Part shown: positions 1 through 56,314 of the stretch, piece by piece | Layout: every line of letters begins with the position of its first letter | Position numbering within the stretch: position 1 is the first letter of the stretch | Source of the DNA: a virus | Virus record (IMG/VR): IMGVR_UViG_3300041411_000074 | Span: 1-64,000 of that record | DNA: 64,000 nt | Reading direction: 5' to 3' (one strand) | Translations under genes and position numbers: made by a program | The notes under the pieces: model-generated | Databases searched by the model: none | The model's input: only the letters and a program-made list of their open reading frames with translations | What the model was told of the DNA's origin: nothing

Positions 1-1315
1 ACTTAGAAGCTTTAGCTTCAGGAACTACTTCTGTACCTTGGTCGCCAAGTTCTGTAAACATATCGGATGCTTCAAGAGCTTGTTTCTGTGCAGCAAAACC
101 ACTCAGAACAGTTTCAAATGCCGAGTCGTCTAGGCTGGACAGGGAGGTCGAAACAGCTTCAACTTTGTCGGCGGACATAACAGCGGCGAGTTTGGACTTA
201 CGAGCGTCCAGTTTAACGGTGACAGCGGCAGCTTCAGCAGAGGCTACAGCTTCTTTCATCTGGGCAACTTCTTGGAGAGCGGTAGCCAGAAGGGTTTCTT
301 TTTCAGCAAGCAGCAAAGAAGCAGCTTCGAATTTAGAAGTAAGATCAGAAACACTCAATTGAGCGCCCTGAAGTTGTTCTTGCAGTTCGGCAAGTTGAGT
401 CATTTCTAGAGTTTCCTCAGTTTTATTGAATTGGGCAAACAGTTTGGTTTTTAACATACCACCTTCTTGTTTTTGAGCTGTATCAGCCAAATGTGTGTAA
501 AACTCTTCAAGAGTCATAACACGGTCAGCTAGTCCAAGCTCAATAGCTTCTTTTGGCAAGAAGGTACGCGCCTGTGTGGACTTCACTGCTTCTACTGACA
601 AGTTGCGATGTTCTGCAACGAACCCAGTAAACTCTTCGTAAAGTGTGTCAACTTTACCTTGAATATCTTCCAAGAACTCTTTACGGAAACTACCATCAGC
701 GTCAAATGGAATCTTGTCATCACCAGCAGAGATAAAGGTACGTTCATAACCCTCTTTCTCAAGTGCTTTGGAGTCATTCATCAAACGAACCAGAACACCA
801 ACACTGCCAACTTCTGAGCTTGGAGCCATGATCAGTTCATCAGCAATTACAGACAAACCATAGGCTGCTGAAGCGGACAGACCATCTACATAGGTGATGA
901 TACGAACGTCGTTTTCAGTAGCCAATTTGCGCATGTAACTGGCAGTTGGCATCATCTGGAAAGCTTCACCACCACCACTAGAAACACTGAATGCAATTGT
1001 CTTTGCACCACTGTCTACAAGATAAGTGAAGTCTTCTTTAATCTGCTGGTAAGATGCACCACCACAATCAAAGCCCATCATAGTGACTGGCTTGTAACTA
1101 AGTGGACCATCAATGTTCAGAACAGCAACCCCGATATCTTTGTTAAAAGAATATCGGGAATTGCTTTCACGGTTATCTTCAACTGCTGTATCTAGTTTGA
1201 AGTCTTCATTGTTTCGTTCGTTAAGATATTGAATAACAATTTCAAACGATGCTGGGTGCATCAAGTGAGGAGTATTGCAAATCTTTTCTTTCAGTCTGAG
1301 AAGACTGTGGGCCAT
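1..1315 (-). CDS. Prohead protease (S49/ClpP-fold) fused to C-terminal scaffold-like coiled coil; runs off the window start
   Basis: Absent from the ORF track. Translated by hand from ATG 1315 (SD AGGAG at 1321-1325): MAHSLLRLKEKICNTPHLM...SSGGGEAF...DGLSASAAYGLS...EVGSVGV...LGLADRV, then an Ala/Glu/Gln/Leu-rich tail. Directly follows the portal gene. Confidence 0.88.
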   Translation of the reverse strand, partial: MAHSLLRLKEKICNTPHLMHPASFEIVIQYLNERNNEDFKLDTAVEDNRESNSRYSFNKDIGVAVLNIDGPLSYKPVTMMGFDCGGASYQQIKEDFTYLVDSGAKTIAFSVSSGGGEAFQMMPTASYMRKLATENDVRIITYVDGLSASAAYGLSVIADELIMAPSSEVGSVGVLVRLMNDSKALEKEGYERTFISAGDDKIPFDADGSFRKEFLEDIQGKVDTLYEEFTGFVAEHRNLSVEAVKSTQARTFLPKEAIELGLADRVMTLEEFYTHLADTAQKQEGGMLKTKLFAQFNKTEETLEMTQLAELQEQLQGAQLSVSDLTSKFEAASLLLAEKETLLATALQEVAQMKEAVASAEAAAVTVKLDARKSKLAAVMSADKVEAVSTSLSSLDDSAFETVLSGFAAQKQALEASDMFTELGDQGTEVVPEAKASK

Positions 1316-1323
1316 ACAGCCTC

Positions 1324-2850
1324 CTAAACGTTTTCGTTATTTGATGTGGAAGAGTCGCCTGAGCTACCAGAGTTGTTACCTGTACCAGATGGAAGACCTT
1401 CTGTCATTCCTTGACCGGAACCAGTTTCCATTGGACTAAGCATCTTAGATAGCTCTTCTACGGAAAGGCTTTCATCAACATGGAATGGGATATCAGCTTG
1501 CTTCATAACCCAGTTAACTACAGCAGGGGTTTTAGGCATCATGCCAACAGCAGTTACACGCTGCAAGAACTTACCGATTTCATCCAAAGACTCTTTAGAG
1601 ATATTCCCGTAATCAAAGTACGGCATTACATCAGTATCCCACGCATTTAATTCCCACAACTGGCGAACCAAATCGTTGTTCAACTGATCTTTAATCTCAT
1701 TAAGCTTAGACTCAAGAGTCATCTCAATGATGCTTACTTTAGTTTCAGCAAGACTAAACGAACCAGAACCACTTGAACCAAGTGCAAGGAAGTCAGCAAA
1801 CAGTGCAGTTAGAATCTCAGAAGTGTAACGACCAATGATTGCATTAGTGTCATAAGACTTTTGACCTGTGACACTTTTGATGTCAAATTCAAACATCTTA
1901 TTCCCGTTTTCGTCGAGAATAAGAGGGAGGATCATACCTGACTGCTTGGCTTGGTGCATGTTAGCTAGAATCTTTTTGTACTCTTCAAATACTGCCTTGT
2001 TCTCTTCAGAGGCATCAGTTGCCATATACTGAGGAGGAAGGTACAGCACTTTAAATCCATTACTGTCTTGAGCTACAGCGATTGCTTCAGACTCTTGGTA
2101 GGCTTGCTTATATTTCCAAGCTTGCCAAGCACCATTAAGCGGGCTAGTGCCCTCGGGATTGTCCTTCAGAGGCGCATTGCGAAAATGGAGGAACTTAGCA
2201 CGTTTAATAAACTTAGTTACAGGCTTTAGACTGGAATCAATTGCTGAACTAGGATTGTTTACAAAGTCACTACCCATTAGAGGGGAGTTAGTTGGAAGAA
2301 TCACATACTGATAAAAACCAGCAAGGTCACGACCATTATTCTTAGTCTTCCAGCTTTCGATAGTGTCTTGAGGGCGTAGGGCAAGTTTCTTAATTCGCAC
2401 TAAACCATCGTTGTATTTACTACCTTTGGCTTTCTCGCGATGACCATAAACCTTTTCTACACAGGCAAAACCGTATCGATTAAAGCTCACAATCTGCTTA
2501 ATTGCAGCATCCCAAGAATGGTCCATGTCATCTTTAACTTGACGTAGGTAGTTAGCTTGAAACTTAAGCTTTTCTTCATAACCTTCGGGGACCTTAACAG
2601 TCCAAGGCACTCGTGCAATCATCATCTCTACAAGTTCAAGGGCTGGAGCAATGGCTCCATCTTTTGCCATACGCTTATAGGTATCAATGCACTGAGGCCA
2701 ACGTAGTTCGTGCGAACATTCTTCTAATACACGACCACCTAAAATTGTGAGGCCAGAAAAACCTTGTTCGCCATAAGTTAGGGAAGGAATATCGTTAGTG
2801 CCAGTTTGCAAGTTCCCCACATCTAAGGAGACATCTTCTTCGTCAGCCAT
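1324..2850 (-). CDS. Portal protein
   Basis: 508 aa between terL and prohead protease; portal-like motifs (NPEGTSPL, LALGSSGSGSFSLAETK, NNDLVRQLWELN). Confidence 0.88.
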   Translation of the reverse strand: MADEEDVSLDVGNLQTGTNDIPSLTYGEQGFSGLTILGGRVLEECSHELRWPQCIDTYKRMAKDGAIAPALELVEMMIARVPWTVKVPEGYEEKLKFQANYLRQVKDDMDHSWDAAIKQIVSFNRYGFACVEKVYGHREKAKGSKYNDGLVRIKKLALRPQDTIESWKTKNNGRDLAGFYQYVILPTNSPLMGSDFVNNPSSAIDSSLKPVTKFIKRAKFLHFRNAPLKDNPEGTSPLNGAWQAWKYKQAYQESEAIAVAQDSNGFKVLYLPPQYMATDASEENKAVFEEYKKILANMHQAKQSGMILPLILDENGNKMFEFDIKSVTGQKSYDTNAIIGRYTSEILTALFADFLALGSSGSGSFSLAETKVSIIEMTLESKLNEIKDQLNNDLVRQLWELNAWDTDVMPYFDYGNISKESLDEIGKFLQRVTAVGMMPKTPAVVNWVMKQADIPFHVDESLSVEELSKMLSPMETGSGQGMTEGLPSGTGNNSGSSGDSSTSNNENV

Positions 2851-2858
2851 TTTATCTC

Positions 2859-4433
2859 CTATTGATGGAAAGGATTAACGTGTGTTAAGTTTGCTGATTG
2901 GAGCCCAGAGAGGAAGTTTGGGATAATCTTACGAGATGCTACAGCTTCAAATGCATCAGAGCACGCATCACAAAGATCATCGTGGCCCGATTCGCCAGAA
3001 CGGCGGGCCCCATCAAAGACCTCCAACTGATTGTAAAAGAACGATAAGTCATTAACTACACCATTCTCATAGTCTGTTGCACAGTTCTTTAGTATCTTCA
3101 TTCCACCATTCATTACGATGGAAGCGAAGGGTTTAAATCTATCTGCTTTCCGACCTTGAGCTCTCATTTGCTTTACAAAGAACCCAGAAGAGGAAATTTC
3201 CTTAGTCAAGAAACTGTTAGTAAACTTAGCTCCTGGGCCAGGGTCCAGAGGAATTATGATGTTTACTTTAGGCCCATCCTGATGTGCAGCCTCCATAATA
3301 AAGTCTAACCATTCACCGGGAAGTACGCGAGTTTGTCTAATGTCATGAATAAAGTAACTACCATCTTTTAACCGGCTCATCTTCACCGAAACGGTGTAGT
3401 CCGGCGATGGGTTCTTGTCACTCTTCTTGGAAAATGCAAAATCATAAGCCCTTACAGTAGATTCAATCTCTGTCCAAGCTGGTTCTTTATCTTCTTCGAC
3501 AAACCACTCGCGTCTGACCATGCCCGACCCTTCGGCGCGAGCCTCCCAACTCCCCCACAGCAAAATTTCTTTCTCAATGCGTGGCAAACCTTCGAGGAAT
3601 GCGATATAGTTATCTTCAATGTACGGGTTGTCGTAGACAGACGCCGAAATCCATGCAAAAGAAAGAGGCTTAATTTGCTTCTTATCAGTCTCTGGAAGAA
3701 GATCACCAAAGGAGTCTCTACGCCCATGATTCTCAAACATCTCTTCACGAGACATTGCCCAAATCATGTCGTTACCGTCACGGATAAACCAACGAACAAT
3801 ACCCTGTTTTGCAGGGTCTGGACGACCATAGAATTCATGCCCAACTGGGTGCAAGTACCAGCCGACCCACTTTTTAACCCACGAATCAGGATTTGGGTTC
3901 ATGGTGGCGCGCATCACAGGCTTCATGTCTGCTTTAGTACGAAGTCGTGAGAGGATGTACAAGAACTGACTTTCTTCGAATTGACAAAGTTCATCTAGGA
4001 CCGCAGAACTAATTTGTGACCCTTGAAAATTGTCCGTATCATCTACACGTTCGAAGTGAGTAAAAGATACTTCAGCTTTTTTCTCCAGTCCATCTACAGG
4101 ACCAAAGTTAATCTTCATATCCTTGTTTCGGATACGAGCTTTATCATCAAAATCTTTAAAGAGAGATTTAGCTTCATCCCATATCGCCCCCGGCTTAGTT
4201 AGCATCGGGGTGGTACGTCTGATTACAATTCCTTTATAATATGGAATATGGATATACTTCATATGGTGCATTAAAGCTGCAAAGGTCTTCCCACCGCCAG
4301 CTTGGCCCCCGTAGAAAATAATATCTACTTCTTCGCCTTCTTCTGTAGCATATTTACTTCTTTTACCAGTGCCGTCTCTCAGTGTTAGAAACAACGACTG
4401 AGGACGACTGGCAGGAGCAATTACTAATGTCAT
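2859..4433 (-). CDS. terL: Terminase large subunit
   Basis: Walker A GGQAGGGKT, Walker B AVLDE, ATMNP coupling motif, nuclease motifs YDFA and HDDLCDA. Confidence 0.95.
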   Translation of the reverse strand: MTLVIAPASRPQSLFLTLRDGTGKRSKYATEEGEEVDIIFYGGQAGGGKTFAALMHHMKYIHIPYYKGIVIRRTTPMLTKPGAIWDEAKSLFKDFDDKARIRNKDMKINFGPVDGLEKKAEVSFTHFERVDDTDNFQGSQISSAVLDELCQFEESQFLYILSRLRTKADMKPVMRATMNPNPDSWVKKWVGWYLHPVGHEFYGRPDPAKQGIVRWFIRDGNDMIWAMSREEMFENHGRRDSFGDLLPETDKKQIKPLSFAWISASVYDNPYIEDNYIAFLEGLPRIEKEILLWGSWEARAEGSGMVRREWFVEEDKEPAWTEIESTVRAYDFAFSKKSDKNPSPDYTVSVKMSRLKDGSYFIHDIRQTRVLPGEWLDFIMEAAHQDGPKVNIIIPLDPGPGAKFTNSFLTKEISSSGFFVKQMRAQGRKADRFKPFASIVMNGGMKILKNCATDYENGVVNDLSFFYNQLEVFDGARRSGESGHDDLCDACSDAFEAVASRKIIPNFLSGLQSANLTHVNPFHQ

Positions 4434-5398
4434 TGATATTCCTTAGAAAATTTAATCCACCTCTCATCTTCTAAAGGAATCCAACCTTTAACAAATTCTC
4501 TGTGCATTGCGGTGAAAGCTCTTGCTGGCAAGTTATCGTTATGTAACCGATTATACAGAGTGGTGAACTTTGCAGAAGTTAGTGTGGTATTAGTAAGATA
4601 TAATTCGTAGTAATAGTCAGCCATCAACCACTTAGTTAATTGTTCGTCTTTTGTAAGAACTGTGCCAGCCTCCCATGCTGGGCGGTTTCTAGCCTTAAGA
4701 CCTTCAGACACTTTTCTTTTTGTCTCTTCTGATCTTACTAGTCCTGTATTCCACGTAACTTTACCCAGCTTCTTTTCTCGCATGATTGCTTTTGTTTCAT
4801 CAGAGTGGGTTTTACCAAAGAAGTGGTTCCCTTCTCCAACAAACTCTTTCATCTTTTCAGTGCGATCACAACCACAAGATCTTGTTCCGCTATTCTTGGT
4901 CAGATTACCTGCACGCACAGTTGAATAGTTACCACAAGTACAAAGACATGTCCAAGTTGAAGTTCTTTGTCCGTTAGATTGAACTACCCAGTCATCAAAA
5001 GAAACTACAGTGAGTCTACCACGGACTTCGCCAGTTAAATCTTTAAACACAGGACTATTAAATCCTGAATTCTTAGAGTTGAATTCGGCTAGTTGTTTGG
5101 CTTGTTCTATTTTCAAAACTTCATAAAGTTTTGAGCTAAACTTAAATAGTCTCTTTTTACTCATAAAGAAAGCAGCGGTGAACAAACCAACATGTCCGGG
5201 GTTCATTTTCCACAGGAGTAAATGAGCAACATAATGTTCTCTTGCAGTAAACATTACCAAATTACTCTTATCATCGCCCCCTCCCAAACACCTAGGGAGA
5301 ATATGGTGAATTTCGAAGTATCCTTCTTGCTGTTTCTTATCAAGACCACGAACTTTAGCCTTTTCTACAAGCGCATTATAAATCTTTTCGTAATTCAA
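4430..5398 (-). CDS. HNH homing endonuclease with NUMOD3-like DNA-binding segment
   Basis: EIHHILPRCLGG.D..SNLV.FTAREH..AH HNH motif, CxCG...SCGC, and HFFGKTHSDETK; overlaps the terL start by 4 nt. Confidence 0.85.
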   Translation of the reverse strand: MNYEKIYNALVEKAKVRGLDKKQQEGYFEIHHILPRCLGGGDDKSNLVMFTAREHYVAHLLLWKMNPGHVGLFTAAFFMSKKRLFKFSSKLYEVLKIEQAKQLAEFNSKNSGFNSPVFKDLTGEVRGRLTVVSFDDWVVQSNGQRTSTWTCLCTCGNYSTVRAGNLTKNSGTRSCGCDRTEKMKEFVGEGNHFFGKTHSDETKAIMREKKLGKVTWNTGLVRSEETKRKVSEGLKARNRPAWEAGTVLTKDEQLTKWLMADYYYELYLTNTTLTSAKFTTLYNRLHNDNLPARAFTAMHREFVKGWIPLEDERWIKFSKEYQ

Positions 5399-5401
5399 AA
5401 C

Positions 5402-5692
5402 TTAACCCTCTTTTACTACACTATGGTAGCGAGGGTTTGCAACTTGTACCCAAATAAGCTCATCAGAATCATAGTCATGACTGAACAACTTATAAAAAAT
5501 TTCAAGTTGTGTGTTTTCAGGTCCACCAACATAATTGTGTGCAAGAGCATCACATGCTTGGTTAGCCAACTGTACGTTCTGAAACTCACCACAAACTTGA
5601 GAAGATCCGTATTTAGGATCATCAGAGTAGCTATGGTATTCACTAACAATATATCGAGTTACAGGACGGACTTTAAATTCTACTTTATGCAT
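5402..5692 (-). CDS. Hypothetical protein
   Basis: ORF track; start moved to MHKVEF behind a GGAG SD. Confidence 0.55.
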   Translation of the reverse strand: MHKVEFKVRPVTRYIVSEYHSYSDDPKYGSSQVCGEFQNVQLANQACDALAHNYVGGPENTQLEIFYKLFSHDYDSDELIWVQVANPRYHSVVKEG

Positions 5693-5754
5693 TTTATATT
5701 CTCCGGTTCTCATGAACCTTCAGTTAAGGAGTAGCCCGCAGGCTACGTTTTGTT

Positions 5755-6117
5755 TTACTCAGCTTCTTCCGAAGCCTTTTCACTACCATCACATGTGGCA
5801 AGATATTGCTTGATCATCTTCGATTTATCGCGACCCTTAATTCCCCTGCGGGCAAGGATTGGTCGGATTTCCTCAATAGGCATATCTTCAAGTTGTTCTT
5901 TCGTATAATTCTCTTGAATTACTTGATAACGAAATCCGGGACTGTCTTCCAACATATCTTTGCTTTCAACATACATCCAGCAACTATGTGGATAACTCAG
6001 TCGTGGTACTTTGTCTTCTTGAAGGATAGCGCCTTTATTAGAGGCTTCCACCACGTTCTTCATGAAGTTGTAGCCAAGGCTATCATTACCTGTAATATAC
6101 AGCATATATCTATTCAT
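5755..6117 (-). CDS. Hypothetical protein with C-terminal SAP/HeH-like helices
   Basis: SD AGGAG; YTKEQLEDMPIEEIRPILARRGIKGRDK resembles Rho_N/HeH-type helices. Confidence 0.65.
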   Translation of the reverse strand: MNRYMLYITGNDSLGYNFMKNVVEASNKGAILQEDKVPRLSYPHSCWMYVESKDMLEDSPGFRYQVIQENYTKEQLEDMPIEEIRPILARRGIKGRDKSKMIKQYLATCDGSEKASEEAE

Positions 6118-6154
6118 TTAAATTCTCTCCTGTTGTGTTCAATTCATAAAAGAG

Positions 6155-6184
6155 AGTATGAACTATGGGAGGTCTGTTTGTCAA
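6155..6184 (-). promoter_or_regulatory. Sigma70-like promoter
   Basis: TTGACA-18-CATACT upstream of ORF 6117. Confidence 0.55.
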
Positions 6185-6252
6185 GCTTATTACAAATATA
6201 TTTAAACTATTTTCAAATAGCTCTATATTTCAATAGTTACCTATAAAACAAC

Positions 6253-7095
6253 TTAAGGCCGTTCTTCCCAAAAACTTGAGAACACACCTGTAGCTGTACC
6301 ACTGCCAAAGTTATTGAAAATCCAATAGTAAGTTCCCGGACCTACCCCACGAGAATCATCCACAGAAGCACCGACAGACTGTGCTTGACCACTTGCGTTA
6401 GCCACAACAATACGAATGACATCAATGTCAACGCCACCTGTTAGGGCTGTTGCGCCCGACCCGACAGTATTCTGAGCTGTATACAAGGGTAGTGGAGGGG
6501 CTGGAAATGCACTGCCAGTCATAGTGTTCTTGGGGATGATTGGGAGAGCTTCTGAGAATGTACCGGTAGGTGTACCACCAACTACAGTACGTAGTTTGAC
6601 AGACCCTGCGTCTAGGGAGAGCCTAACGTTCTGAAGTATTGTATTCACAGGAACTATAATTCTCATTACCAATGTAGCGCTAGAAGCAATACTAAGCTCC
6701 TTGAATGTACGAAACTCCCTACCTTCGAAGAAACCTGTCTGCCCAACATCCACTCTTAGGCGCCTATATCCCTCTGTCTTTGTGGTCCATACATCAGAAG
6801 GAAGGTCTACAGAAGTGAACGGCTCAATAGAACTAGCTAGAAGTAGGTCAGCATCAATCACACCAAGGAAGGGTGCCCTAATCCAAGTCTGCAAAGAATT
6901 CTTTGTGAAGGAGTAGGTTTCTTTTGGGAAGATTTCAGCCCCTGTAAAGGAGTCTGCTGGGATAGTGGCTGAACGTGTGACGTATAATGCACCGTTACTT
7001 AGGTTTGTAAGCTTGATGCTATTGAGTGTAAAGTCTAGAGATGTTAGGGTGGATAAGTTAATCCAACCAGTTGTTTGTAGCCTATGTACACTCAT
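6253..7095 (-). CDS. Putative virion-associated beta-rich protein
   Basis: 280 aa, Thr/Ser/Gly/Val-rich; SD AAGGA; lies next to the SGNH gene. Confidence 0.6.
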   Translation of the reverse strand: MSVHRLQTTGWINLSTLTSLDFTLNSIKLTNLSNGALYVTRSATIPADSFTGAEIFPKETYSFTKNSLQTWIRAPFLGVIDADLLLASSIEPFTSVDLPSDVWTTKTEGYRRLRVDVGQTGFFEGREFRTFKELSIASSATLVMRIIVPVNTILQNVRLSLDAGSVKLRTVVGGTPTGTFSEALPIIPKNTMTGSAFPAPPLPLYTAQNTVGSGATALTGGVDIDVIRIVVANASGQAQSVGASVDDSRGVGPGTYYWIFNNFGSGTATGVFSSFWEERP

Positions 7096-7158
7096 AGCAT
7101 TCCTTTTATTATTTTGATTTGGAATGAATATTTATAAACTTGTTTATTAGAAGTTACT

Positions 7159-8547
7159 CTACAACCCTAAAGCAGCCGTATAAGCTGGGATAGCGTATCC
7201 AGCCAATGTCAGATAGCCATTAGCCGTAGGATGCGTATTATCCAATGTCTCAAACCCTGTCCATGTAATTGTATCAATCCAAATAAGCTTAGGATTAGCT
7301 TTAGCATCCATGACAGCTTTCAATGTGACGTTTGCAGCATTAACCAACTCTGGAGCACCAATGTTAGGCAGAATCCCCCGACACAATACTTTGCCATATC
7401 CTTTAGCCAGCAGCTTATCGATACACAATCCATAATCAGCTTGTTCTGTGCTATCAATGCCACCAGAGCCGCTGTTACCACCTAATGCTAGGATTGCTAC
7501 ATCATTAGCTGTAACAGTTTTCATAGCTAAGGCGGCGTCAATCATTGCCCTACCACCACCTACTGTTTGACCACTAACACCATTCGTGCTACCAACAAAC
7601 CCAAGTGCTGCTGCTACGTGCATTGTTTCAGTGTTTACTGAAGTGGCTCCCGGACCGGAGCCGTAAGTGATGCTGTCACCAAACTGATCTAGCTTTCTTC
7701 GCACACCAATATCAAGCAGTGTGCTATTGCCGCTTACAGCAAAATGTCCACCAAGCTCTCTGAATGCACCCCCATCCCACACATTGTATGTGGCTACAGA
7801 ACCATCACAAGGAATAACAATAGCACGAGGAACACCATCAGCTTCAGGAGGGGCTGTGTAATAAGTGGGAACCCCACCATTCTTACTCACACCAACTCTA
7901 GAGGATGTAGCTACAATCTTAGTGAATGTGCCGCGTATCTTGACAGAGCCTACGTTAGAACCACTGGTTACATTACTTGGTGCTTGGAGAGGCGGGGAGT
8001 ATCCTGATACGTTTGGTGTGATCCCAGCAGAGTACAAGCCTGTGGCTGAATCACTGCCTGCCTGAATCCAATTAGATGCTGCAACAAGTGCCGGAGGTTG
8101 GCCTGTAACACTCAAGACATTCCCAGAGGATGCTACATAAGGAGCATCACCCATCTGCACAACCCACCTTACTTGTACAAAGTAGGTAGCATGAGGAAGA
8201 CCAGTGAAGAGTGTGTATACAGATACAGAGTTGGGAGCACTGATGAAATCACCACCATCTACACTCACTTGCATAGACCCAGCGTTATCACCATAATCTG
8301 AAGGAGATGTAAGCTTGGCTTCAGTACCTGTAATCCATCCACACCACAATGTCAAAGCACCATAGGCATACACTCTTGCGGCGTTCTTAGTTGTATTAAG
8401 AGAGCCTGCAAAGCCCGGAACGAACTGAGAGGATGTGAATGGTGTAGTTGTGGGATCAGGAATTACAACGGAATGCTTTGGTTTAAAACTATGAAGGGGT
8501 CTTGAAATAGAACTGACAACTGAAGATGTAATATCATGAGTCATCAT
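7159..8547 (-). CDS. SGNH/GDSL esterase-domain protein
   Basis: Blocks FGDSIT, NGVSG, LGGN and DNTHPT in the C-terminal third; beta-rich N-terminus. Confidence 0.85.
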   Translation of the reverse strand: MMTHDITSSVVSSISRPLHSFKPKHSVVIPDPTTTPFTSSQFVPGFAGSLNTTKNAARVYAYGALTLWCGWITGTEAKLTSPSDYGDNAGSMQVSVDGGDFISAPNSVSVYTLFTGLPHATYFVQVRWVVQMGDAPYVASSGNVLSVTGQPPALVAASNWIQAGSDSATGLYSAGITPNVSGYSPPLQAPSNVTSGSNVGSVKIRGTFTKIVATSSRVGVSKNGGVPTYYTAPPEADGVPRAIVIPCDGSVATYNVWDGGAFRELGGHFAVSGNSTLLDIGVRRKLDQFGDSITYGSGPGATSVNTETMHVAAALGFVGSTNGVSGQTVGGGRAMIDAALAMKTVTANDVAILALGGNSGSGGIDSTEQADYGLCIDKLLAKGYGKVLCRGILPNIGAPELVNAANVTLKAVMDAKANPKLIWIDTITWTGFETLDNTHPTANGYLTLAGYAIPAYTAALGL

Positions 8548-8551
8548 AAAA

Positions 8552-8854
8552 TCAAGTCTCTAGAAATACACCAAAAGGTTTGCCAACATAAGCATAACGC
8601 TTTACACGATAAGTGCCGGGACCAGACAAGACAGTAGAAGGATTGCTATAGCTTAATGCGACAAATACAGCATTATCTGCACCGGGAGTATCTTGGAGGA
8701 TCTTGAACTTAGGTGCGTTTTGTTCTTGGTAGGATAGAGGCTTATCAGCATCCAGAAAGAACACACCAACCACCACTGAAGCACCTGCTGCAATAACGAT
8801 ATCTGTTGAAGTCGCTTCTGTAATACCAGCAGCTAAAATTGTACTTTGTGCCAT
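8552..8854 (-). CDS. Small beta-rich partner of the SGNH protein
   Basis: Start MAQSTILAAG behind SD AAGGA; GPGTYRVKR motif. Confidence 0.65.
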   Translation of the reverse strand: MAQSTILAAGITEATSTDIVIAAGASVVVGVFFLDADKPLSYQEQNAPKFKILQDTPGADNAVFVALSYSNPSTVLSGPGTYRVKRYAYVGKPFGVFLET

Positions 8855-8875
8855 TATGAATCCTTGATTAAAGTT

Positions 8876-9034
8876 AGCTGCTGATTGAATAATTATTGCT
8901 GATTCACCCACCTACCCGGTAATCAGACTCTTAGGTTCTAAAAGTAAACCTACCTTCTCCACTTGATAGCTTACCTATCAGCATTTACATCAGTGGAAGC
9001 GCCAGCAACCACGGGTTTCCGAACTAGGCAGCTC
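8876..9034 (-). ncRNA. Candidate structured RNA, possibly pseudoknotted
   Basis: Intergenic; stems TTCCACT/AGTGGAG, TGATAG/CTATCA, TAGGTT/AACCTA, CTGATT/AATCAG, GGTTGCTGG/TCAGCAGCT. Confidence 0.5.
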
Positions 9035-9044
9035 AGAAATTCTT

Positions 9045-9452
9045 TTAATCTTTCTTTTCTACAGGTTCATCAAAAGTCAATTTCAAACGAGGAACAAGCT
9101 TTACAATCTCTGCAACTTCTTGTTCATCTTCGTCATCAACCGAACGCTTACCTTCAAGACGAATCTTAGTAAGAGATGCTTCTTCTTGACTAGCGGCTCT
9201 ATCCAAACTGATCAGGGAGTTGATAACCCACTTAGAAGAGTCAAGCTGTTTAGGCTCTACTTCCTTACCTTCAACACTATTCTTAATGTTTTCTAGGCAC
9301 TTACTTTCCAACTCTCGGAGCTTGGCAGCAGTATCACGAAGCTTAGACTTCTGGATTCGAACTTTACTGTTTGATTTCGTATTTCTATTCGAACGAGGGC
9401 CATCAAACCTTGTATCAGGAGATGGGTTGGAGTTCTTTGGGGTTTTAGCCAT
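9045..9452 (-). CDS. Helical basic protein, possible terminase small subunit
   Basis: Basic N-terminus and helical core, upstream of and co-oriented with terL; function inferred from position only. Confidence 0.45.
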   Translation of the reverse strand: MAKTPKNSNPSPDTRFDGPRSNRNTKSNSKVRIQKSKLRDTAAKLRELESKCLENIKNSVEGKEVEPKQLDSSKWVINSLISLDRAASQEEASLTKIRLEGKRSVDDEDEQEVAEIVKLVPRLKLTFDEPVEKKD

Positions 9453-9479
9453 TATAAATACCTTTGAATTAATAAAATT

Positions 9480-9690
9480 CTTTCTATAAAACACTCACAG
9501 GACAACTTGCAATAGATTAAGTAATCAGAATGTTTTATAGAAAGCTCACTGGTAACTGAGGAGAGGCAGCATCAATGAGTAAAGACTTTGGGGAGGAGAG
9601 AAACCCTAATCTTTAAGAGTCGCCATAGGAGAGAGGATAGCGACGGAGAAACCCAACTTTCTAGAATTTGATCTTCGTGTTGGGGTGAAA
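9480..9690 (-). ncRNA. Hairpin array with CU-rich anti-SD loops in the tRNA 3' trailer
   Basis: Three hairpins with CTCTCCT-containing loops plus a 17-bp terminal stem; G-U pairs work only on the minus strand. Confidence 0.7.
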
Positions 9691-9691
9691 C

Positions 9692-9767
9692 TGGTGCCGT
9701 CACCAAGAGTTGAACTCGGGACATCCTGATTACAAAACAGGTGCTCTACCAACTGAGCTATAACGGC
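9692..9767 (-). tRNA. tRNA-Thr (anticodon UGU), CCA encoded
   Basis: GCCGTTA-TA-GCTCAGTTGGTAGAGC-A-CCTGT-TTTGTAA-TCAGG-ATGTC-CCGAG-TTCAACT-CTTGG-TGACGGC-ACCA, 76 nt cloverleaf. Confidence 0.96.
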
Positions 9768-9777
9768 GGATTCATTG

Positions 9778-10077
9778 CTCCCTAAGTAACCCTCTTTACT
9801 CCGAAGAGCAGCCGACAAGTTACTAGGAAGACTTCAGGAGTCGTCACTCCACTTCTTTAAGTGGCTCTAAGGCCGAACATCAGATAGTAGAATTAAAACC
9901 CTTTACCGTCACGGACAGACCTTGTTACAGGTAGGAACACAACCACTACGTTAGTGGGACACTTCAGCGTTTTTATGTAGCACTACCACAGCCTAAGCTT
10001 ACTGGCATCCTAGCTGAATAGGGCTGCTACTATCAGCGTCATACAAGCTCAGCCAAGGCATCTTTTGCTGTGTATGA
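9778..10077 (-). ncRNA. Candidate ~300-nt multi-branch structured RNA upstream of the tRNA
   Basis: At least 8 stems, including long-range GATAGTAG/CTACTATC; no credible ORF. Confidence 0.6.
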
Positions 10078-10091
10078 ACTTTGTTGCTCTT

Positions 10092-10322
10092 TTAACAAGT
10101 AGTCAATGGAGAAGTATTCACCCAATCAAACTGTTTACCAATAAGGTCTACAGGTTTTGGTCTATCAAAAAGATGTCCAAAATTAGCTCTATCAGGCGTC
10201 CTCTTATCAAACACAAGCTTCAAATGATCTTTAATCATCAACCATTGTTTTTCAGAAATGGTGTCTGTGTCGGATAGTTCTACGAAGCCTTGTAGCCAAT
10301 ATGTGAAGCTTTCAGAATTCAT
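10092..10322 (-). CDS. Conserved phage hypothetical protein
   Basis: F.YWLQGFVEL...QW.MIKDHL.LVF pattern; coupled to the upstream ORF. Confidence 0.7.
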   Translation of the reverse strand: MNSESFTYWLQGFVELSDTDTISEKQWLMIKDHLKLVFDKRTPDRANFGHLFDRPKPVDLIGKQFDWVNTSPLTTC

Positions 10323-10501
10323 TGGTCGTGATCCTTAGAAAGTTCTTCTATAGAAATAGAACGGCTATCATATACATAACCTTCGTAGCCTTCCCCATCT
10401 TGAAGGTAGCTCACAGCCTCTTTCCCATCATAGTCAACCAAAGTAATCTTAACTTCTTTGTCTTGAGTGCAATGAGCTGTCACTTTAACTGTACTTGTCA
10501 T
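10319..10501 (-). CDS. Hypothetical protein
   Basis: SD GGAGAGG; follows a promoter. Confidence 0.65.
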   Translation of the reverse strand: MTSTVKVTAHCTQDKEVKITLVDYDGKEAVSYLQDGEGYEGYVYDSRSISIEELSKDHDQ

Positions 10502-10537
10502 AAATGTTTCCTCTCCTTTCCTAATTTCAATAAAGAT

Positions 10538-10566
10538 ATTTTACAGCATGTTTCGTTATAAGTCAA
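10538..10566 (-). promoter_or_regulatory. Sigma70-like promoter
   Basis: TTGACT-17-TAAAAT; could drive the two small ORFs and the downstream RNA/tRNA array. Confidence 0.65.
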
Positions 10567-10572
10567 GAGTAA

Positions 10573-10755
10573 TTACTCATAATTAGGATAAACTTTACGG
10601 AATTGACTATTATTTTCACTAATTGATTCAAAAGCATACTCAAATTTGAAATCTTTATTATCTTCTTCAACTAACTCGATAAGATCGCAATAACAATCTT
10701 CGAGCAATTCTCCACAATCTTGACATGACTCAATCATCAAATATATCCTTTTCAT
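10573..10755 (-). CDS. Small Cys-containing hypothetical protein
   Basis: CxxCG...CxC; overlaps the end of the HNH gene. Confidence 0.4.
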   Translation of the reverse strand: MKRIYLMIESCQDCGELLEDCYCDLIELVEEDNKDFKFEYAFESISENNSQFRKVYPNYE

Positions 10756-11506
10756 AATCCCGTTCTGCTTTTAAGATGGCATGCCACTTGTCTGGATGCA
10801 TGCCTCCCTTACGGTGATTACATGTAGGACAGAGTAGCTGTAAGTTTTCAATACTGTTTCGACCATGCAATACAATAGGCATGATGTGGTCGATATGATA
10901 ATTCTTTCCAGACAAGTCAACAGGACAATAAACACAAACACCATACTGCTTATCATACAAATCATTAATTTCTTGCACTGTAAAAGAGCCTCCTACTGCA
11001 AAAACCCTACTTCTGCGAGTATGACGCCTGTTGGCAGCTTTCTCAGGATACAGGATTGCATCACGTCGTCTATTGGCTCGATCACAAACTACACAATGAC
11101 CATTCCTTGCTACACGCTTAGCCATATGACCTCGTTTACAAGGTTTGTCTGTATAGTAAAATTTTGAATCCGTAGCGTATGCTTCTCTTTTTGTTTTTGG
11201 TAGAAATTCAAGATCTTCATACTGATCTTCATCAACAAAGACTCTAAAGTCATCATCAGCTAGATACTGTTGACGTTCATATTCCCTTGCTGCTAGTGCT
11301 TTTTCTTTCCTGTCTCTTTTGTCCTTAACAAATAAAACAGATTCTTCTTTCTCTTCTCTAAAGAGTTGATTCCTCTCTTCTAAGCATTCAACACACTGAG
11401 TAGATTCAACCATACGTTCAGATATGTGGCCATTCTTACATTCCTCACCAATAAAGAAATATTTAATGCCTTGTGCTCTAGCTTCTGCTCTTGTTGTAAA
11501 TTCCAT
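10730..11506 (-). CDS. HNH endonuclease with two N-terminal Zn-binding repeats
   Basis: Repeats CKNGH..ER....CVEC and CKRGH..KR....CVVC; C-terminal CVYC...HIDHIMP...GRNSIENLQLLCPTCN. Start moved to MEFTT. Confidence 0.85.
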   Translation of the reverse strand: MEFTTRAEARAQGIKYFFIGEECKNGHISERMVESTQCVECLEERNQLFREEKEESVLFVKDKRDRKEKALAAREYERQQYLADDDFRVFVDEDQYEDLEFLPKTKREAYATDSKFYYTDKPCKRGHMAKRVARNGHCVVCDRANRRRDAILYPEKAANRRHTRRSRVFAVGGSFTVQEINDLYDKQYGVCVYCPVDLSGKNYHIDHIMPIVLHGRNSIENLQLLCPTCNHRKGGMHPDKWHAILKAERDYEKDIFDD

Positions 11507-11654
11507 TCTTCTCTCTTTAGATTTATTAAAGATACTAGAAATAAATGAATAAGTCAAGTGATTATAGATTTATTTGTTGTCTGTGGTGTGTCAGGAGTAT
11601 TAAGATTTTGATTCTTATGTATTTAATATTATTTATATTGTATTAGATTTACAT

Positions 11655-12097
11655 TTCAACTGAGTTCAGATAGGAACTTCAGATAAAGAAATACCTTACC
11701 CAGCCATACAAAGCTAATGCTCTGCCTAAGACCGAGTAACTTACCTTATCTGATAGCTCTATCTGCCTCTGTCCGTTATAGCAATAAATGCCTTTCAACT
11801 TGAGACGAGATTTAGTGGATCTTTCGATCCTACGGTCTACACGGACAAACGTAGCCGCCTTCAGGACAATGACACTAATAACGCATTGTCTCAACACATT
11901 GCATATCGCACGACTTTATTAGAATCGTTAGGGAGGTAGTGTTTTTCAGTTTACCTTGCAGACTGTCCCATCACTCACAGTAGTCCGCTTGTTTAAGAAA
12001 GAAGCTGCCATCTCACACAGGAAGCGTTAGCCACCATGTTAACCGACCTTCAAACCGATCTTTATTTCAATGTGCTTTCGCTTAGGGAAATAAAGAA
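11655..12097 (-). ncRNA. Candidate ~440-nt highly structured RNA 5' of the HNH gene
   Basis: Starts just after a promoter; stems TCTTTATTTC/GAAATAAAGA, GACAATG/CATTGTC, TGTCCGT/ACGGACA, GGATC-GAAA-GATCC, CAGATAG/CTATCTG, TTACTCGGTC/GGCTGGGTAA. Confidence 0.7.
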
Positions 12098-12104
12098 TGT
12101 ATCA

Positions 12105-12132
12105 ATTATACACGAATTAGAAAATAGATCAA
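12105..12132 (-). promoter_or_regulatory. Sigma70-like promoter for the structured RNA
   Basis: TTGATC-16-TATAAT. Confidence 0.6.
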
Positions 12133-12271
12133 CCTTTTGTTTGACCCACAGCCCATCCGCTTTAATTCAGTAAAAGAAGTATCTCACATCTTGTATCCCA
12201 ATTGCAAGCTTTCTTGTAAAATAGTTATACCGTTCGTCGGGAATGATACTGAAAAATATATTAATTAAACC

Positions 12272-12300
12272 TTGCTTTTCTCTTGTAATTATGCCATACT
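12272..12300 (+). promoter_or_regulatory. Sigma70-like promoter, divergent
   Basis: TTGCTT-17-CATACT with an AT-rich upstream element, ahead of the HTH gene. Confidence 0.5.
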
Positions 12301-12333
12301 TCTTTTATCAAATTACCCAGCAGAGAAGCTAAA

Positions 12334-12603
12334 ATGAAAACTGAAGAATCTACAATCCTTGATGTAAAGTCTAAGCTTGCTGCACTGATCATGCAGTTTA
12401 TGCAAGAAAAAGAATTGAATCAATATCAGACAGCCACGAAGGTAGGTACAACACAACCAAGGATCAGCGACTTGACAAGGGGTAAGATTAGTCGATTCTC
12501 TATCGAAAGCCTCCTCCTGATTGCATTGAAGCTTGGTGTCGATATTGAGCAAGAATTTGACCCTGAGTATGGCTTGAATATTCGTCTGGGTGCCGCTCAG
12601 TAG
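12334..12603 (+). CDS. XRE-family (HigA-like) helix-turn-helix protein
   Basis: LNQYQTATKVGTTQPRISDLTRGKISRFSIESLL. Confidence 0.85.
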   Translation: MKTEESTILDVKSKLAALIMQFMQEKELNQYQTATKVGTTQPRISDLTRGKISRFSIESLLLIALKLGVDIEQEFDPEYGLNIRLGAAQ

Positions 12604-12844
12604 TCGTAGCACCATGTCCCCAACAGTGCTATCCTTTGTACAACAAATAGGAGAAGCCCAAATGCCCATCATCCACTCACACACCTACCGTCTCCTGAAA
12701 CAAATCCTTGAACATGCAGATAAGGTTGTGATAGTGTCGGTAACACAAGAGGATGAGAAGCAAATGACATACACGTATGTGAAACGTAAACAAACTGAGA
12801 AGGGAGAGAGGAGATGAAATCTTTACACCCATCTGACAAGGGCA

Positions 12845-13153
12845 ATGCACCGTGGAGACGTGAGTGCTGGTACTCTAGTCCTGATAGCCTATCCTTTAAA
12901 CGTAAAAAGAAATCTAAAAGTAAGATTAAGGGGATTTAAATTGAATAACAAATTTGTAAGCTTGGTGTTGGTTGATCGTTCATCTGACTCTGTAGATGAA
13001 GAGTGGGGCCGTGGTTTTAAGGGTATCACACATTTTGAATTTGAATCAGCACAAGACGCTAGACAGTTCTTCATTGAAGAGAATATAAAGTACAAACAAG
13101 GTTTTGTTGTAGCAACACGATTCGTTCTGATTCCGTACATGGGGAGGAAATAA
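12845..13153 (+). CDS. Hypothetical protein
   Basis: ORF within the co-oriented plus-strand gene run. Confidence 0.5.
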   Translation: MHRGDVSAGTLVLIAYPLNVKRNLKVRLRGFKLNNKFVSLVLVDRSSDSVDEEWGRGFKGITHFEFESAQDARQFFIEENIKYKQGFVVATRFVLIPYMGRK

Positions 13154-13254
13154 TATGTTCTTTATTGGATTGATTTGTGGTATTGTATTGACATCGGTGA
13201 TCGGATTACTTCTAGTGGGTTATCAATTTAGTACAATGTTTCGGAGGAATTGAA

Positions 13255-13530
13255 ATGAATTGGCACACAAGAGGTTTTCTGACGAAGTTCGCTGCTCTTC
13301 TGGAAGAATACAACGCTAGCTTAGAGATTGAGGGAGACGCATACGGAGGAATTCAGGACATTACATTGGAAGTGAGGAATCCTCAGACTTTTGATCAATT
13401 CTACGATAGTTGGATTATTGAGCACCCTGAAGAGAAATATCCGTGGAATAGTCGTAAATATTCTTATGCTGATTGGGTTGATCTAGGTAAGAATGTTGAT
13501 TGTCATAAGATTAAGGGGCTTTTGAAATGA
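13255..13530 (+). CDS. Hypothetical protein
   Basis: SD GGAGG. Confidence 0.65.
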   Translation: MNWHTRGFLTKFAALLEEYNASLEIEGDAYGGIQDITLEVRNPQTFDQFYDSWIIEHPEEKYPWNSRKYSYADWVDLGKNVDCHKIKGLLK

Positions 13531-13754
13531 TCTATAAGGATATGATGCGAAGAGAAGACTTTGAAAAAGTGGTTGCAGGGTTCAGGATACTCAACCATGA
13601 ATGACTGGAGCTTTCAAGAGATTGGAGAGTTCCTATATTATTTTATCAAAAACCAAGACACAGGAAAGTATGCGCTTATCAAGCAGTATTTTGGTCAAGA
13701 TAGGTATGAGGTGCTATTACAAGATTGGACGGACTATAATGGGTTGGCCGAGGT

Positions 13755-14018
13755 ATGAGTAACCAAGCTTGCAGTAATCCATATTATGATGTGGAAAAGC
13801 AATCGGCTAACATGACCCACACATTCCGTGACCACGACATAGACGAAATCTTCGTCATCCATTCACCAAACAACACCCTCCTCCACATAAGCTACCTTGG
13901 CCCAACAGAGGAGACATTTTACACTAGGGCTGACATATTGGCGATGTTGGATATTATTGATGGGAAGGTAGAGGGAGTTGTGGTTGTAAAAGCCCAACCA
14001 CAGGAGATTCGGAAATGA
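13755..14018 (+). CDS. Hypothetical protein
   Basis: Translationally coupled (ATGA overlaps) at both ends. Confidence 0.6.
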   Translation: MSNQACSNPYYDVEKQSANMTHTFRDHDIDEIFVIHSPNNTLLHISYLGPTEETFYTRADILAMLDIIDGKVEGVVVVKAQPQEIRK

Positions 14019-23146: not shown

Positions 23147-23983
23147 GTGAGCATTCAAATGCAAAACCAAACAACAATGTTGGGGAATCAGTCCATATAC
23201 GTCTCAATTAAGCCGGGGAAGGTTGGGACTGTCCCACTTTTGATAATGAACGGTATAGGAGCGAATACTGGTCTGCTGACTCCGTTTGTTGAAGCTATGC
23301 ACGAATCAAATCCTGATATCGAGGTTATTACTTTTGATGTACCGGGGTGTGGAGGTTCTTCTACCCCTTCGCTGCCATATAGGTTTAGCGGCTTGGCTAA
23401 AATAGTTTCACAAATGTTAGACTATTTGAACTATGCACAAGTTGATGTACTTGGACTTAGTTGGGGTGGATTTTTGGCAACCCAGTTTGCTTATGATTAT
23501 CCTCAGCGTTGTAAGAAACTAATTCTATGTGCTACAGCAACAGGAGTTACCAGTATTCCACCCAGTATGAAAGTACTTTCTCTAATGGCTTCACCTAGAC
23601 GTTACTCTGATTCAGCTTACATGGTTGAGATTGCACCTTTGATCTACGGTGGAAAATTCCGCTCTGATCCTGAACTAGCAATTAAGTACGCACAGAAGAT
23701 GGAAGCTAACAGATCTGAGAATAAAGCTAACGCAACTGGCTATAAGTTTCAACAGCTAGCAATTTGTTGGTGGAGTAGTTTGTGGATGTTTCCTTACATT
23801 AAACAGTCTACACTTTTGATTGGTGGTAGTGATGATCCAATCATACCGCTGGTGAATATGAAGATTATGAAAGGGATGATCCCTAATTCTAAACTTCATG
23901 TGGTGGATGATGGACATCTTTTCCTTCTTTGTTCAACTGACGTGGTAACGCCTATTATTACTAAATTCTTGGAAGTGTCATGA
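23147..23983 (+). CDS. phaZ: Poly(3-hydroxyalkanoate) depolymerase, intracellular mcl-PHA type (alpha/beta hydrolase)
   Basis: Colinear with Pseudomonas PhaZ as I recall it: PLLIMNGIGAN, FDVPG.GGSSTP..PYRF.GLAK, GLSWGG (Ser), YPQRCKKL, MASPRRY, IAPLIYGG, DDPIIPLVNM (Asp), DDGHLFL (His). SD GAGGGGAG. Confidence 0.9.
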   Translation: MSIQMQNQTTMLGNQSIYVSIKPGKVGTVPLLIMNGIGANTGLLTPFVEAMHESNPDIEVITFDVPGCGGSSTPSLPYRFSGLAKIVSQMLDYLNYAQVDVLGLSWGGFLATQFAYDYPQRCKKLILCATATGVTSIPPSMKVLSLMASPRRYSDSAYMVEIAPLIYGGKFRSDPELAIKYAQKMEANRSENKANATGYKFQQLAICWWSSLWMFPYIKQSTLLIGGSDDPIIPLVNMKIMKGMIPNSKLHVVDDGHLFLLCSTDVVTPIITKFLEVS

Positions 23984-55930: not shown

Positions 55931-56314
55931 ATGAAATTTAAAAGTGGCGACAAGGTTGTACGGATTAAGTCTGATTGGGATGTGGTTCGTGTTGGTGGAG
56001 TTTATATTGTTCGATATCAGGAGACTGATGGTGTATACTTGAGTGATCTGCAAGGTAAGGTACTTGTAGGCTGTTATGATCCGGCATACTTTCAGCTTCT
56101 TGTAGAAGTGTCAGCTACGCCAGTAACACCAAACTACGCAGCAGCCTTCAATACTTGGATGGACGACTATGTGAACAATCCACAAGCATACGAGAATTCC
56201 CATGAAAGTGCAGTACGCCATTTGAAAGAGAAGCTTAATGGTGAAGAGCCGTCTTATGGTGAAGTTTGTGCAGAAGTGCTTGTAAATTATATTAATAAAT
56301 TGGAGAATAAATAA
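55931..56314 (+). CDS. Hypothetical protein
   Basis: SD AGGAGAG; FKSGDKVVR start. Confidence 0.65.
   Translation: MKFKSGDKVVRIKSDWDVVRVGGVYIVRYQETDGVYLSDLQGKVLVGCYDPAYFQLLVEVSATPVTPNYAAAFNTWMDDYVNNPQAYENSHESAVRHLKEKLNGEEPSYGEVCAEVLVNYINKLENK

Follow-up and report, generated by a model that had tools for sequence, protein, structure and literature searches.

A phage contig of 89,364 bp (IMG/VR record IMGVR_UViG_3300041411_000074) begins with a stretch of 64,000 nucleotides that we refer to as the window, and the minus strand of the window encodes at 9480-9691 a structured RNA of 212 nt. It belongs to a conserved, so far uncatalogued family of phage RNAs, approximately 210-250 nt in length. 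From 5' to 3', members of the family open with a conserved GUUUCACC and a hairpin (the 5' hairpin), continue with two to four hairpins, usually three, that have C- and U-rich (CU) loops centred on CUCUCC(U), and end in a long terminal domain organized around a three-way junction. We believe the best explanation of this element is that it may mask ribosome-binding sites (RBSs) and thereby interfere with translation start, a tentative reading to which we assign a probability of about 0.45.

Structure and conservation of the element

The element begins where the gene for tRNA-Thr(UGU) ends (9692-9767, minus strand, with an encoded CCA; called by ARAGORN and matched by the Rfam tRNA model at 66.5 bits), and it scores 256 bits against R1, the covariance model described below. 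When positions 9452-9695 of the minus strand are folded with RNAfold, the free energy is -63.1 kcal/mol (z -5.37), and none of 200 shuffled sequences folds as well. The fold comprises five units, that is, the 5' hairpin, a UUUCUCC linker, three CU hairpins and a long terminal hairpin, with 10 helices in the whole element. The three CU hairpins had been named on the minus strand by an earlier reading made from the letters alone (hereafter the sequence-only reading), and RNAfold reproduces them at 9644-9619 (H1), 9615-9580 (H2) and 9579-9545 (H3). The same reading had placed the array directly after the CCA of the tRNA; the 5' end of the element does adjoin the tRNA, but the first CU hairpin lies 47 nt further on, behind the conserved GUUUCACC (9684-9691), which is usually preceded by an A and often by a tRNA-type CCA, and behind the 5' hairpin (9652-9684). 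The TTCACC at the 5' end of the element is invariant in 21 of 21 aligned rows, and the 5' hairpin, which consists of a 6-bp stem, an A-rich loop and a small AGA/UCU inner stem (helices 1 and 2), shows compensatory changes at all 9 of its pairs, with 99.4% and 94.3% of cells paired in the two helices, respectively.

The linker (9645-9651) is single-stranded in the fold and forms a fourth CU-rich segment, a character it retains in most members. H1 (9619-9644; loop CCUCUCUCCU) is formed by helix 3, with compensatory changes at 8 of 8 pairs; H2 (9580-9615; loop UUUCUCUCCU) by helices 4 and 5, its 5' strand beginning within a conserved CUUAAAG; and H3 (9545-9579) by helices 6 and 7, its loop, CCUCUCCU, being the commonest H3 loop of the family. 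The sequence-only reading had completed the array with the linker and a 17-bp closing stem, and both are present, but the closing domain (9480-9544; helices 8-10, supported by RNAalifold) is more elaborate than had been supposed: the 17-bp A/U-rich basal stem (UUUCUA..UAGAAA) leads into a three-way junction with two small apical hairpins. No U-tract follows, and a search for an intrinsic terminator at 9480-9544 found no terminator-like site. In the window, UAGAAAG occurs in the 5'-hairpin loop and again in the terminal stem, on its 3' strand, and the two copies could in principle compete for CUUUCUA; the likeness is not kept in relatives, and we rejected this idea.

H1-H3 contain four G.U/U.G pairs and no A.C pair, as the sequence-only reading had noted, and therefore pair fully on the minus strand only. 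Their clustering also sets them apart within the genome. Of the 15 occurrences of CTCTCCT on the two strands of the whole contig, 3 fall within 70 nt in the element, while a genome-wide scan of 7,406 predicted hairpin loops picks out 53 that are loosely CU-rich, among which H1-H3 are the only adjacent ones.

R1 was built from the window and its closest relative (two near-identical seeds), with the structure supplied by hand, and the search set was 39 IMG/VR loci with relatives of the 135-aa protein encoded just downstream of the element (open reading frame, ORF, at 9045-9452 on the minus strand). The long contigs among these loci are 81-93 kb and the remainder are shorter pieces. In 25 of the 39 loci R1 finds a full-length element that is read in the sense of the gene (E-values 3e-66 to 1e-5), and one further locus carries an element cut by the contig end. 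The gene strand accounts for 26 of 27 locus matches; the single opposite-strand match is weak and falls at the palindromic terminal stem. In the R1 alignment, which is fitted to the model and whose pairing figures are favoured by that fit, standard pairs make up 94.9% of 1,630 cells, as against 66.1% in shuffles (0 of 500 reach the observed value) and 37-46% once pairing partners are displaced by 1-3 columns. Changes on both sides are seen at 62 of 64 pairs, and several G.U pairs are conserved; the stems co-vary strongly. An independent MAFFT/RNAalifold analysis finds 21 of 26 pairs in the terminal domain to be compensatory, and the sense fold beats the antisense fold in 21 of 22 members, by a mean of -7.2 kcal/mol. 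Together, the compensatory stem changes, the conserved G.U pairs and the strand asymmetry show that selection acts on the fold of a single-stranded RNA.

A second check, cmscan against Rfam, turned up no relevant family: at gathering scores the whole window yields only the tRNA, and at E-values up to 10 the interval 9440-9700 yields two chance-level matches only, to a miRNA and a snoRNA.

Stems that differ while the loop motif is kept, a feature first remarked on in the window, prove to be a property of the whole family. Among 77 apical loops in 26 full-length sequences, CUCC is found in 74, UCUCC in 68 and CUCUCCU in 52; all-pyrimidine loops number 60, and G accounts for 4 of 856 loop nucleotides. 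Nearly every hairpin sequence, in contrast, is distinct, with 24 different sequences at H1, 23 at H2 and 25 at H3. The loops are unpaired in both minimum-free-energy and consensus folds. The number of CU hairpins varies, from two (L129, L152 and L157) to four (L154 and G001), as would be expected of redundant modules.

Distribution across genomes

A filtered R1 search of five relatives gave no match (0/5), whereas cmsearch with its filters off found the element in the four complete ones (E-values 1e-14 to 2e-6), and a regular-expression scan for clustered CU tracts also places it in those four genomes; the fifth relative, G004, is a 39%-complete fragment and stands outside the filters-off count. 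The apparent absences of the element are thus artefacts of the search filters, the fast filters missing distant members. All 9 of 9 complete genomes examined, the window included, carry the element, and it is therefore core to the clade.

Searches that reached further afield gave little. An IMG/VR pattern scan for three CTCTCCT boxes returned at least 119 loci, and R1, applied to 99 of the 119 plus L166, matched 4, all of this clade; the other pattern matches were treated as chance. The terminase region of Pseudomonas phage vB_PsaM_M1 has no R1 match, a BLAST search of the window element and two distant members against 50,697 phage records (those close to the window possibly being masked) returned tRNA matches only, and no relatives of the 135-aa protein were found in 185,579 prokaryote genomes. 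The family appears to be limited to this clade. In G011, the contig of L161, a second cluster of four CU-rich tracts lies on the minus strand near 71878, far from that genome's element.

Genomic context

The gap between a tRNA 3' end and the start of the element is 0-1 nt in the window and at L138 (Thr), L145 (Arg), L151 (Gly), L159 (Thr) and L165 (Thr), that is, in the window plus 5 of 25 full-length loci. L147 has a gap of 9 nt, 5 further loci have tRNAs no more than 120 nt upstream, and at L158 a tRNA-Gln starts 11 nt past the element end. Linkage to tRNA genes is frequent, not obligatory; other 5' contexts are a stop codon (L139) or plain spacer. Several other members have ..CCA before the element and no called tRNA, and an A precedes GUUUCACC in nearly all. 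In L132, L160 and G003 (L204), acceptor-like ends (..CCGCACCA, ..CTACCA and ..CCGCTCCA) stand before GUUUCACC with no adjacent ARAGORN tRNA, and these may be tRNA remnants or unusual tRNAs.

On a larger scale, the element sits at the border of the tRNA/accessory region and the packaging-structural genes, both of which share its reading direction. At its borders there is neither a promoter-like nor a terminator-like site, and the sequence past the terminal stem is not U-rich in most relatives. Downstream, the 135-aa gene follows at 24-30 nt in many members, and at the far side of an insert of 150-290 nt in six (L131, L162, L151, L135, L160 and L128). In four relatives the first downstream gene is a different one; the 135-aa gene is encoded on the element's strand there too, but 2.7-3.7 kb downstream. 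Because it adjoins tRNAs, has no promoter or terminator of its own and has a downstream neighbour that varies, the element behaves like a gene of the tRNA cluster.

The six inserts share a motif, ..ATT(T/C)CTCATG(T/A)(G/A)T.., and a tRNA-like look, and ARAGORN calls no tRNA in them. Genes for HNH-type homing endonucleases at 10730-11557 and 4430-5398 (both minus strand, the second with NUMOD3) flank the RNA/packaging region of the window, and the variable inserts around the element in relatives are consistent with such neighbours. Between a 76-aa ORF and the tRNA, at 9778-10077 on the minus strand, lie about 300 nt that are non-coding and G+C-richer, with visible hairpins; this segment is not found upstream of the element in most relatives. 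The 135-aa protein itself matches nothing in Pfam, PHROG or NCBIfam. AlphaFold predicts a helical hairpin for it, with a predicted local distance difference test (pLDDT) score of 69, and a Foldseek search against the PDB returns nothing at E <= 0.001.

The phage and its clade

The 89-kb contig encodes a portal, a large terminase (TerL), a primase-helicase and a DNA polymerase. Its TerL shares 41-43% identity with the TerL proteins of Pseudomonas phages phiPMW and vB_PsaM_M1, the latter classified in the Ounavirinae, and the clade that carries the RNA element is one of Felix-O1-like (Ounavirinae-related) uncultured phages with genomes of about 85-93 kb. The phage also encodes PhaZ (23147-23983, plus strand), which passes the NCBIfam equivalog TIGR02240, poly(3-hydroxyalkanoate) depolymerase, at 333.6 bits (cut-off 250.6); homologues with 60-88% identity are found on many 84-92 kb contigs, indicating that the gene is common in the clade. 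DNA libraries with matching sequence are labelled rhizosphere. From the TerL likeness, the PhaZ match and the rhizosphere label, our guess is a Pseudomonas-like host. Three wastewater libraries labelled RNA-Seq (X20, X23 and X24, marked as probably DNA) contain relatives' contigs that are 85-95% alike over 5000-14000, with rearranged joints near 9366-9683 and 9543-10562.

A possible role at ribosome-binding sites

CUCC is the complement of GGAG, and 129 GGAG sites stand before candidate starts in this genome, counted as sites 3-10 nt before the start of an ORF of at least 40 codons. Perfect 10-nt complements of the H2 loop are found at the start sites 17964, 55931 and 39956 (minus strand), and of the H1 loop at 12814, with shorter loop complements at the starts 6117 and 10501. 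The element's own neighbourhood looks different. The minus-strand block that contains it (1-12300) has GGAG in 2 of 13 gene calls, as against 59 of 105 elsewhere, figures qualified by the roughness of the gene calls and by the non-independence of orthologous start sites. AAGGA-type RBSs predominate among the genes after the element, and the first of these genes, the 135-aa gene starting at 9452, has AAAGG and not GGAG, a site that is not complementary to the loops. A block poor in GGAG would fit genes that escape a GGAG-directed RNA, and we take it as a mild hint to that effect.

The general pathway we have in mind is as follows. The RNA would be excised from a longer, tRNA-containing transcript, its 5' end generated either by processing of the tRNA 3' trailer or by an RNase E-type cut between A and GUUU, and its 3' end protected by the long terminal stem, whereupon it could persist as a stable species. 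Its three or four exposed CUCC loops would then pair, redundantly, with the GGAG-type Shine-Dalgarno (SD) sequences of host or phage mRNAs, so that 30S binding is blocked. The direct tRNA junctions of the window and of those 5 of 25 loci, together with the 9-nt gap at L147, make release by tRNA-type processing plausible. The proposed action is modelled on the NfeR1/cuckoo RNAs, LhrC and the RNAIII hairpins. NfeR1, in the available text of its description, silences ntrB at its ribosome-binding site through three redundant anti-SD motifs (PMC10746234), and LhrC is likewise described as silencing mRNAs at the ribosome-binding site through three redundant CU-rich sites (PMC4132741).

A bolder version of this idea, which we consider quite improbable, would cast the RNA as a multivalent mimic of the 3' tail of 16S rRNA, issued from the phage tRNA operon as part of a translation-takeover module. 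It comes in two forms. The mimic might soak up SD leaders in bulk and shut off host or early messages, while late genes of the AAGGA type escape; or it might draw off a host factor directed at the anti-SD, such as a hibernation factor or an abortive-infection toxin that cuts the anti-SD, and so leave ribosomes usable for the phage.

At the same time, a number of observations weigh against the masking of RBSs. The majority of members have no adjacent tRNA call, which bears on the tRNA-release part of the proposal, and with no promoter or terminator of its own, a free RNA may never exist. A stoichiometric blocker of many mRNAs would need to be very highly abundant, and the conservation of the loops suits a sequence-specific protein equally well. 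The AGGAGAG that the sequence-only reading presented as an SD of this phage does precede the starts 6117, 17964 and 55931, but it is not typical: GGAGAA is commonest (33 of 129 sites) and GGAGAG accounts for 13 of 129, and is therefore not the phage's preferred RBS. Nor does RBS usage differ much among the 9 genomes, where GGAG precedes 39-52% of crude gene calls and GGAGAG occurs 5-15 times, a comparison that is descriptive, with no with/without contrast, as all 9 carry the element. Since leaders are purine-rich, 10-nt loop complements are likely to arise without selection. The six candidate target genes (17964, 55931, 39956 on the minus strand, 12814, 6117 and 10501) are small ORFs, and no function could be assigned to any of them. 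No conserved phage target with conserved pairing emerged, the gene at 55931 being the one tested; it was found in none of 8 complete relatives searched, and its one weak, partial match (E 5.5e-4, 34% over 58 residues) is in a 43%-complete fragment.

The loops might instead be a platform or decoy for a protein, the repeated single-stranded CUCUCC loops binding several copies of a pyrimidine-specific RNA-binding protein as CsrB/RsmZ do for CsrA, an alternative we regard as unlikely but take seriously. The architecture is that of a sponge, with 2-4 equal loop motifs on unrelated stems; the loop sequence is stricter than a generic SD complement needs, CCUCUCCU being identical in many H3 loops; and no conserved RNA target was found. 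The candidates would presumably include ribosomal protein S1, Rho at its primary (YC-binding) sites, a factor in contact with the 16S anti-SD, such as Era or RMF, or an endoribonuclease toxin that cuts CUCCU-type sites. G-free, C-rich loops would suit Rho or S1, but the loops vary far less than binding by either would require, and recognition of CUCUCC loops is not known for any protein. Comparison of gene content in the 9 genomes found no cluster present in at least 4 of one group and none of the other, which says little, as the grouping was wrong and all 9 carry the element. Distinctly unlikely, in our judgement, is a leader or processing module acting in cis on the late operon, in which the 5' hairpin and 17-bp stem are RNase E/RNase III structures that separate tRNA precursors from the downstream mRNA or protect that mRNA, and the CU loops, having no trans targets, serve folding or local contacts. 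The element does always lie between tRNA/accessory and late genes on the same strand, no terminator follows it, its terminal stem, a long A/U-rich duplex whose ends are invariant, is similar to the RNase III sites of phages such as T7, and the rarity of GGAG in its block (on crude calls) would also fit. Such a module would nonetheless leave unexplained why near-invariant loops are displayed on three hairpins whose stems are free to vary, and it sits poorly with a hairpin copy number that varies and with a next start codon that lies anywhere from about 24 nt to 3.7 kb away, in a gene that differs.

The covariation and strand tests disfavour the two remaining alternatives. That the CTCTCCT boxes are a site in DNA, recognized by a protein of packaging or replication (for instance a small terminase, the site being pac-like), is suggested by repeats spaced by about 35 bp just upstream of a gene for a small helical protein, with the large terminase further on, and by small terminases among the fold matches of the 135-aa protein, at E-values of 3.5-6.6 that are not significant. 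We find this highly improbable, in that the covariation and strand evidence set out above points to selection on the fold of a single-stranded RNA, and the element is 2.7-3.7 kb from the 135-aa gene in four genomes. Scarcely credible is a CsrA/RsmA-type sponge read from the plus strand, with AGGAGAG (GGA) loops. The complement of each loop would have AGGA in a hairpin loop, the recognition type of CsrA/RsmE; but the plus-strand fold is the less stable one in 21 of 22 members, the conserved G.U pairs would turn into A.C mismatches, R1 lies on the gene-sense strand in all loci but for the one weak palindromic match, and the neighbouring genes and tRNAs are all on the minus strand.

Regardless of which molecules the loops contact, several results are new here, namely the core status of the element, the recognition of its apparent absences as filter artefacts, the count of direct tRNA junctions, the variants with two to four hairpins, and the negative results for conserved targets. 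We found no description of this RNA in the literature, and the available text of a 2025 review of phage small RNAs (sRNAs) neither contains the word 'tRNA' nor describes a multi-loop anti-SD RNA (PMC12197685). Base-pairing sRNAs of virulent phages are barely known. If the element does mask RBSs, or is a decoy for a ribosome-directed factor, it would represent an RNA-only route by which a phage reprogrammes translation, and the cuckoo design would have arisen independently in viruses. In practical terms, these phages can be annotated with the clean covariance model that the family supplies, and the arrangement of three loops on free stems offers synthetic regulators a scaffold that is compact and modular.

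Comparison with known systems

The closest parallel in design is the cuckoo/alpha-r14 family of Alphaproteobacteria (RSs0680/CcsR1-4, and SmelC397, which is NfeR1), in which 2-4 adjacent hairpins display the same C/U-rich loop motif on free stems, as here (PMC4615179, PMC10746234). In size, too, the hairpins (24-58 nt) and loops (7-20 nt) of the element overlap the ranges given for cuckoo RNAs in the text available. The sequence-only reading had drawn this likeness, and the design principle matches, but the kinship goes no further. None of the 77 loops, and none of the 77 hairpin segments, contains the cuckoo motif CCUCCUCCC, the motif of the element being CUCUCC(U). Cuckoo hairpins are adjacent and without multiloops. 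The CU hairpins of the element adjoin one another too, but are flanked by a further hairpin and a terminal three-way junction that cuckoo RNAs, as far as they are described in the available text of PMC4615179, lack. Cuckoo genes are chromosomal or plasmid-borne, with an Rfam model that is not matched here, whereas the element is phage-encoded, lies in a tRNA cluster and is without its own terminator. Membership in the cuckoo family thus fails on the motif, on the covariance model and on the phage setting.

A similar picture holds for the Firmicutes, where LhrC1-5, the RNAIII hairpins and RsaE likewise carry several redundant CU-rich single-stranded sites per molecule and pair with G-rich RBSs, and where, by the available account of LhrC, one molecule could hold several mRNAs, as might the element (PMC4132741). 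These RNAs are independent genes with terminators and have no sequence relation to the element; their UCCC is found in 5 of 77 loops here.

Among phage RNAs, T4 rnaC and rnaD (species 1 and 2) are small stable RNAs located in a phage tRNA cluster directly after a tRNA, a position like that of the element, but neither fold has CU-rich loops, the end of rnaC is a tRNA-like arm, and neither RNA resembles the element in sequence or structure. The c4 antisense RNA of P1/P7 is a phage RNA cut from an operon transcript, with loops that pair around an RBS, much as is proposed for the element (PMC12197685, in the text available). c4 is described there as having one specific target downstream in its own operon; for the element none was found, and the next start, with AAAGG at 9452, is non-complementary. 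Finally, CsrB, RsmY and RsmZ share with the element the display of one short motif on many hairpins; their motif is the GGA bound by CsrA/RsmA, whereas the expressed strand of the element shows its complement.

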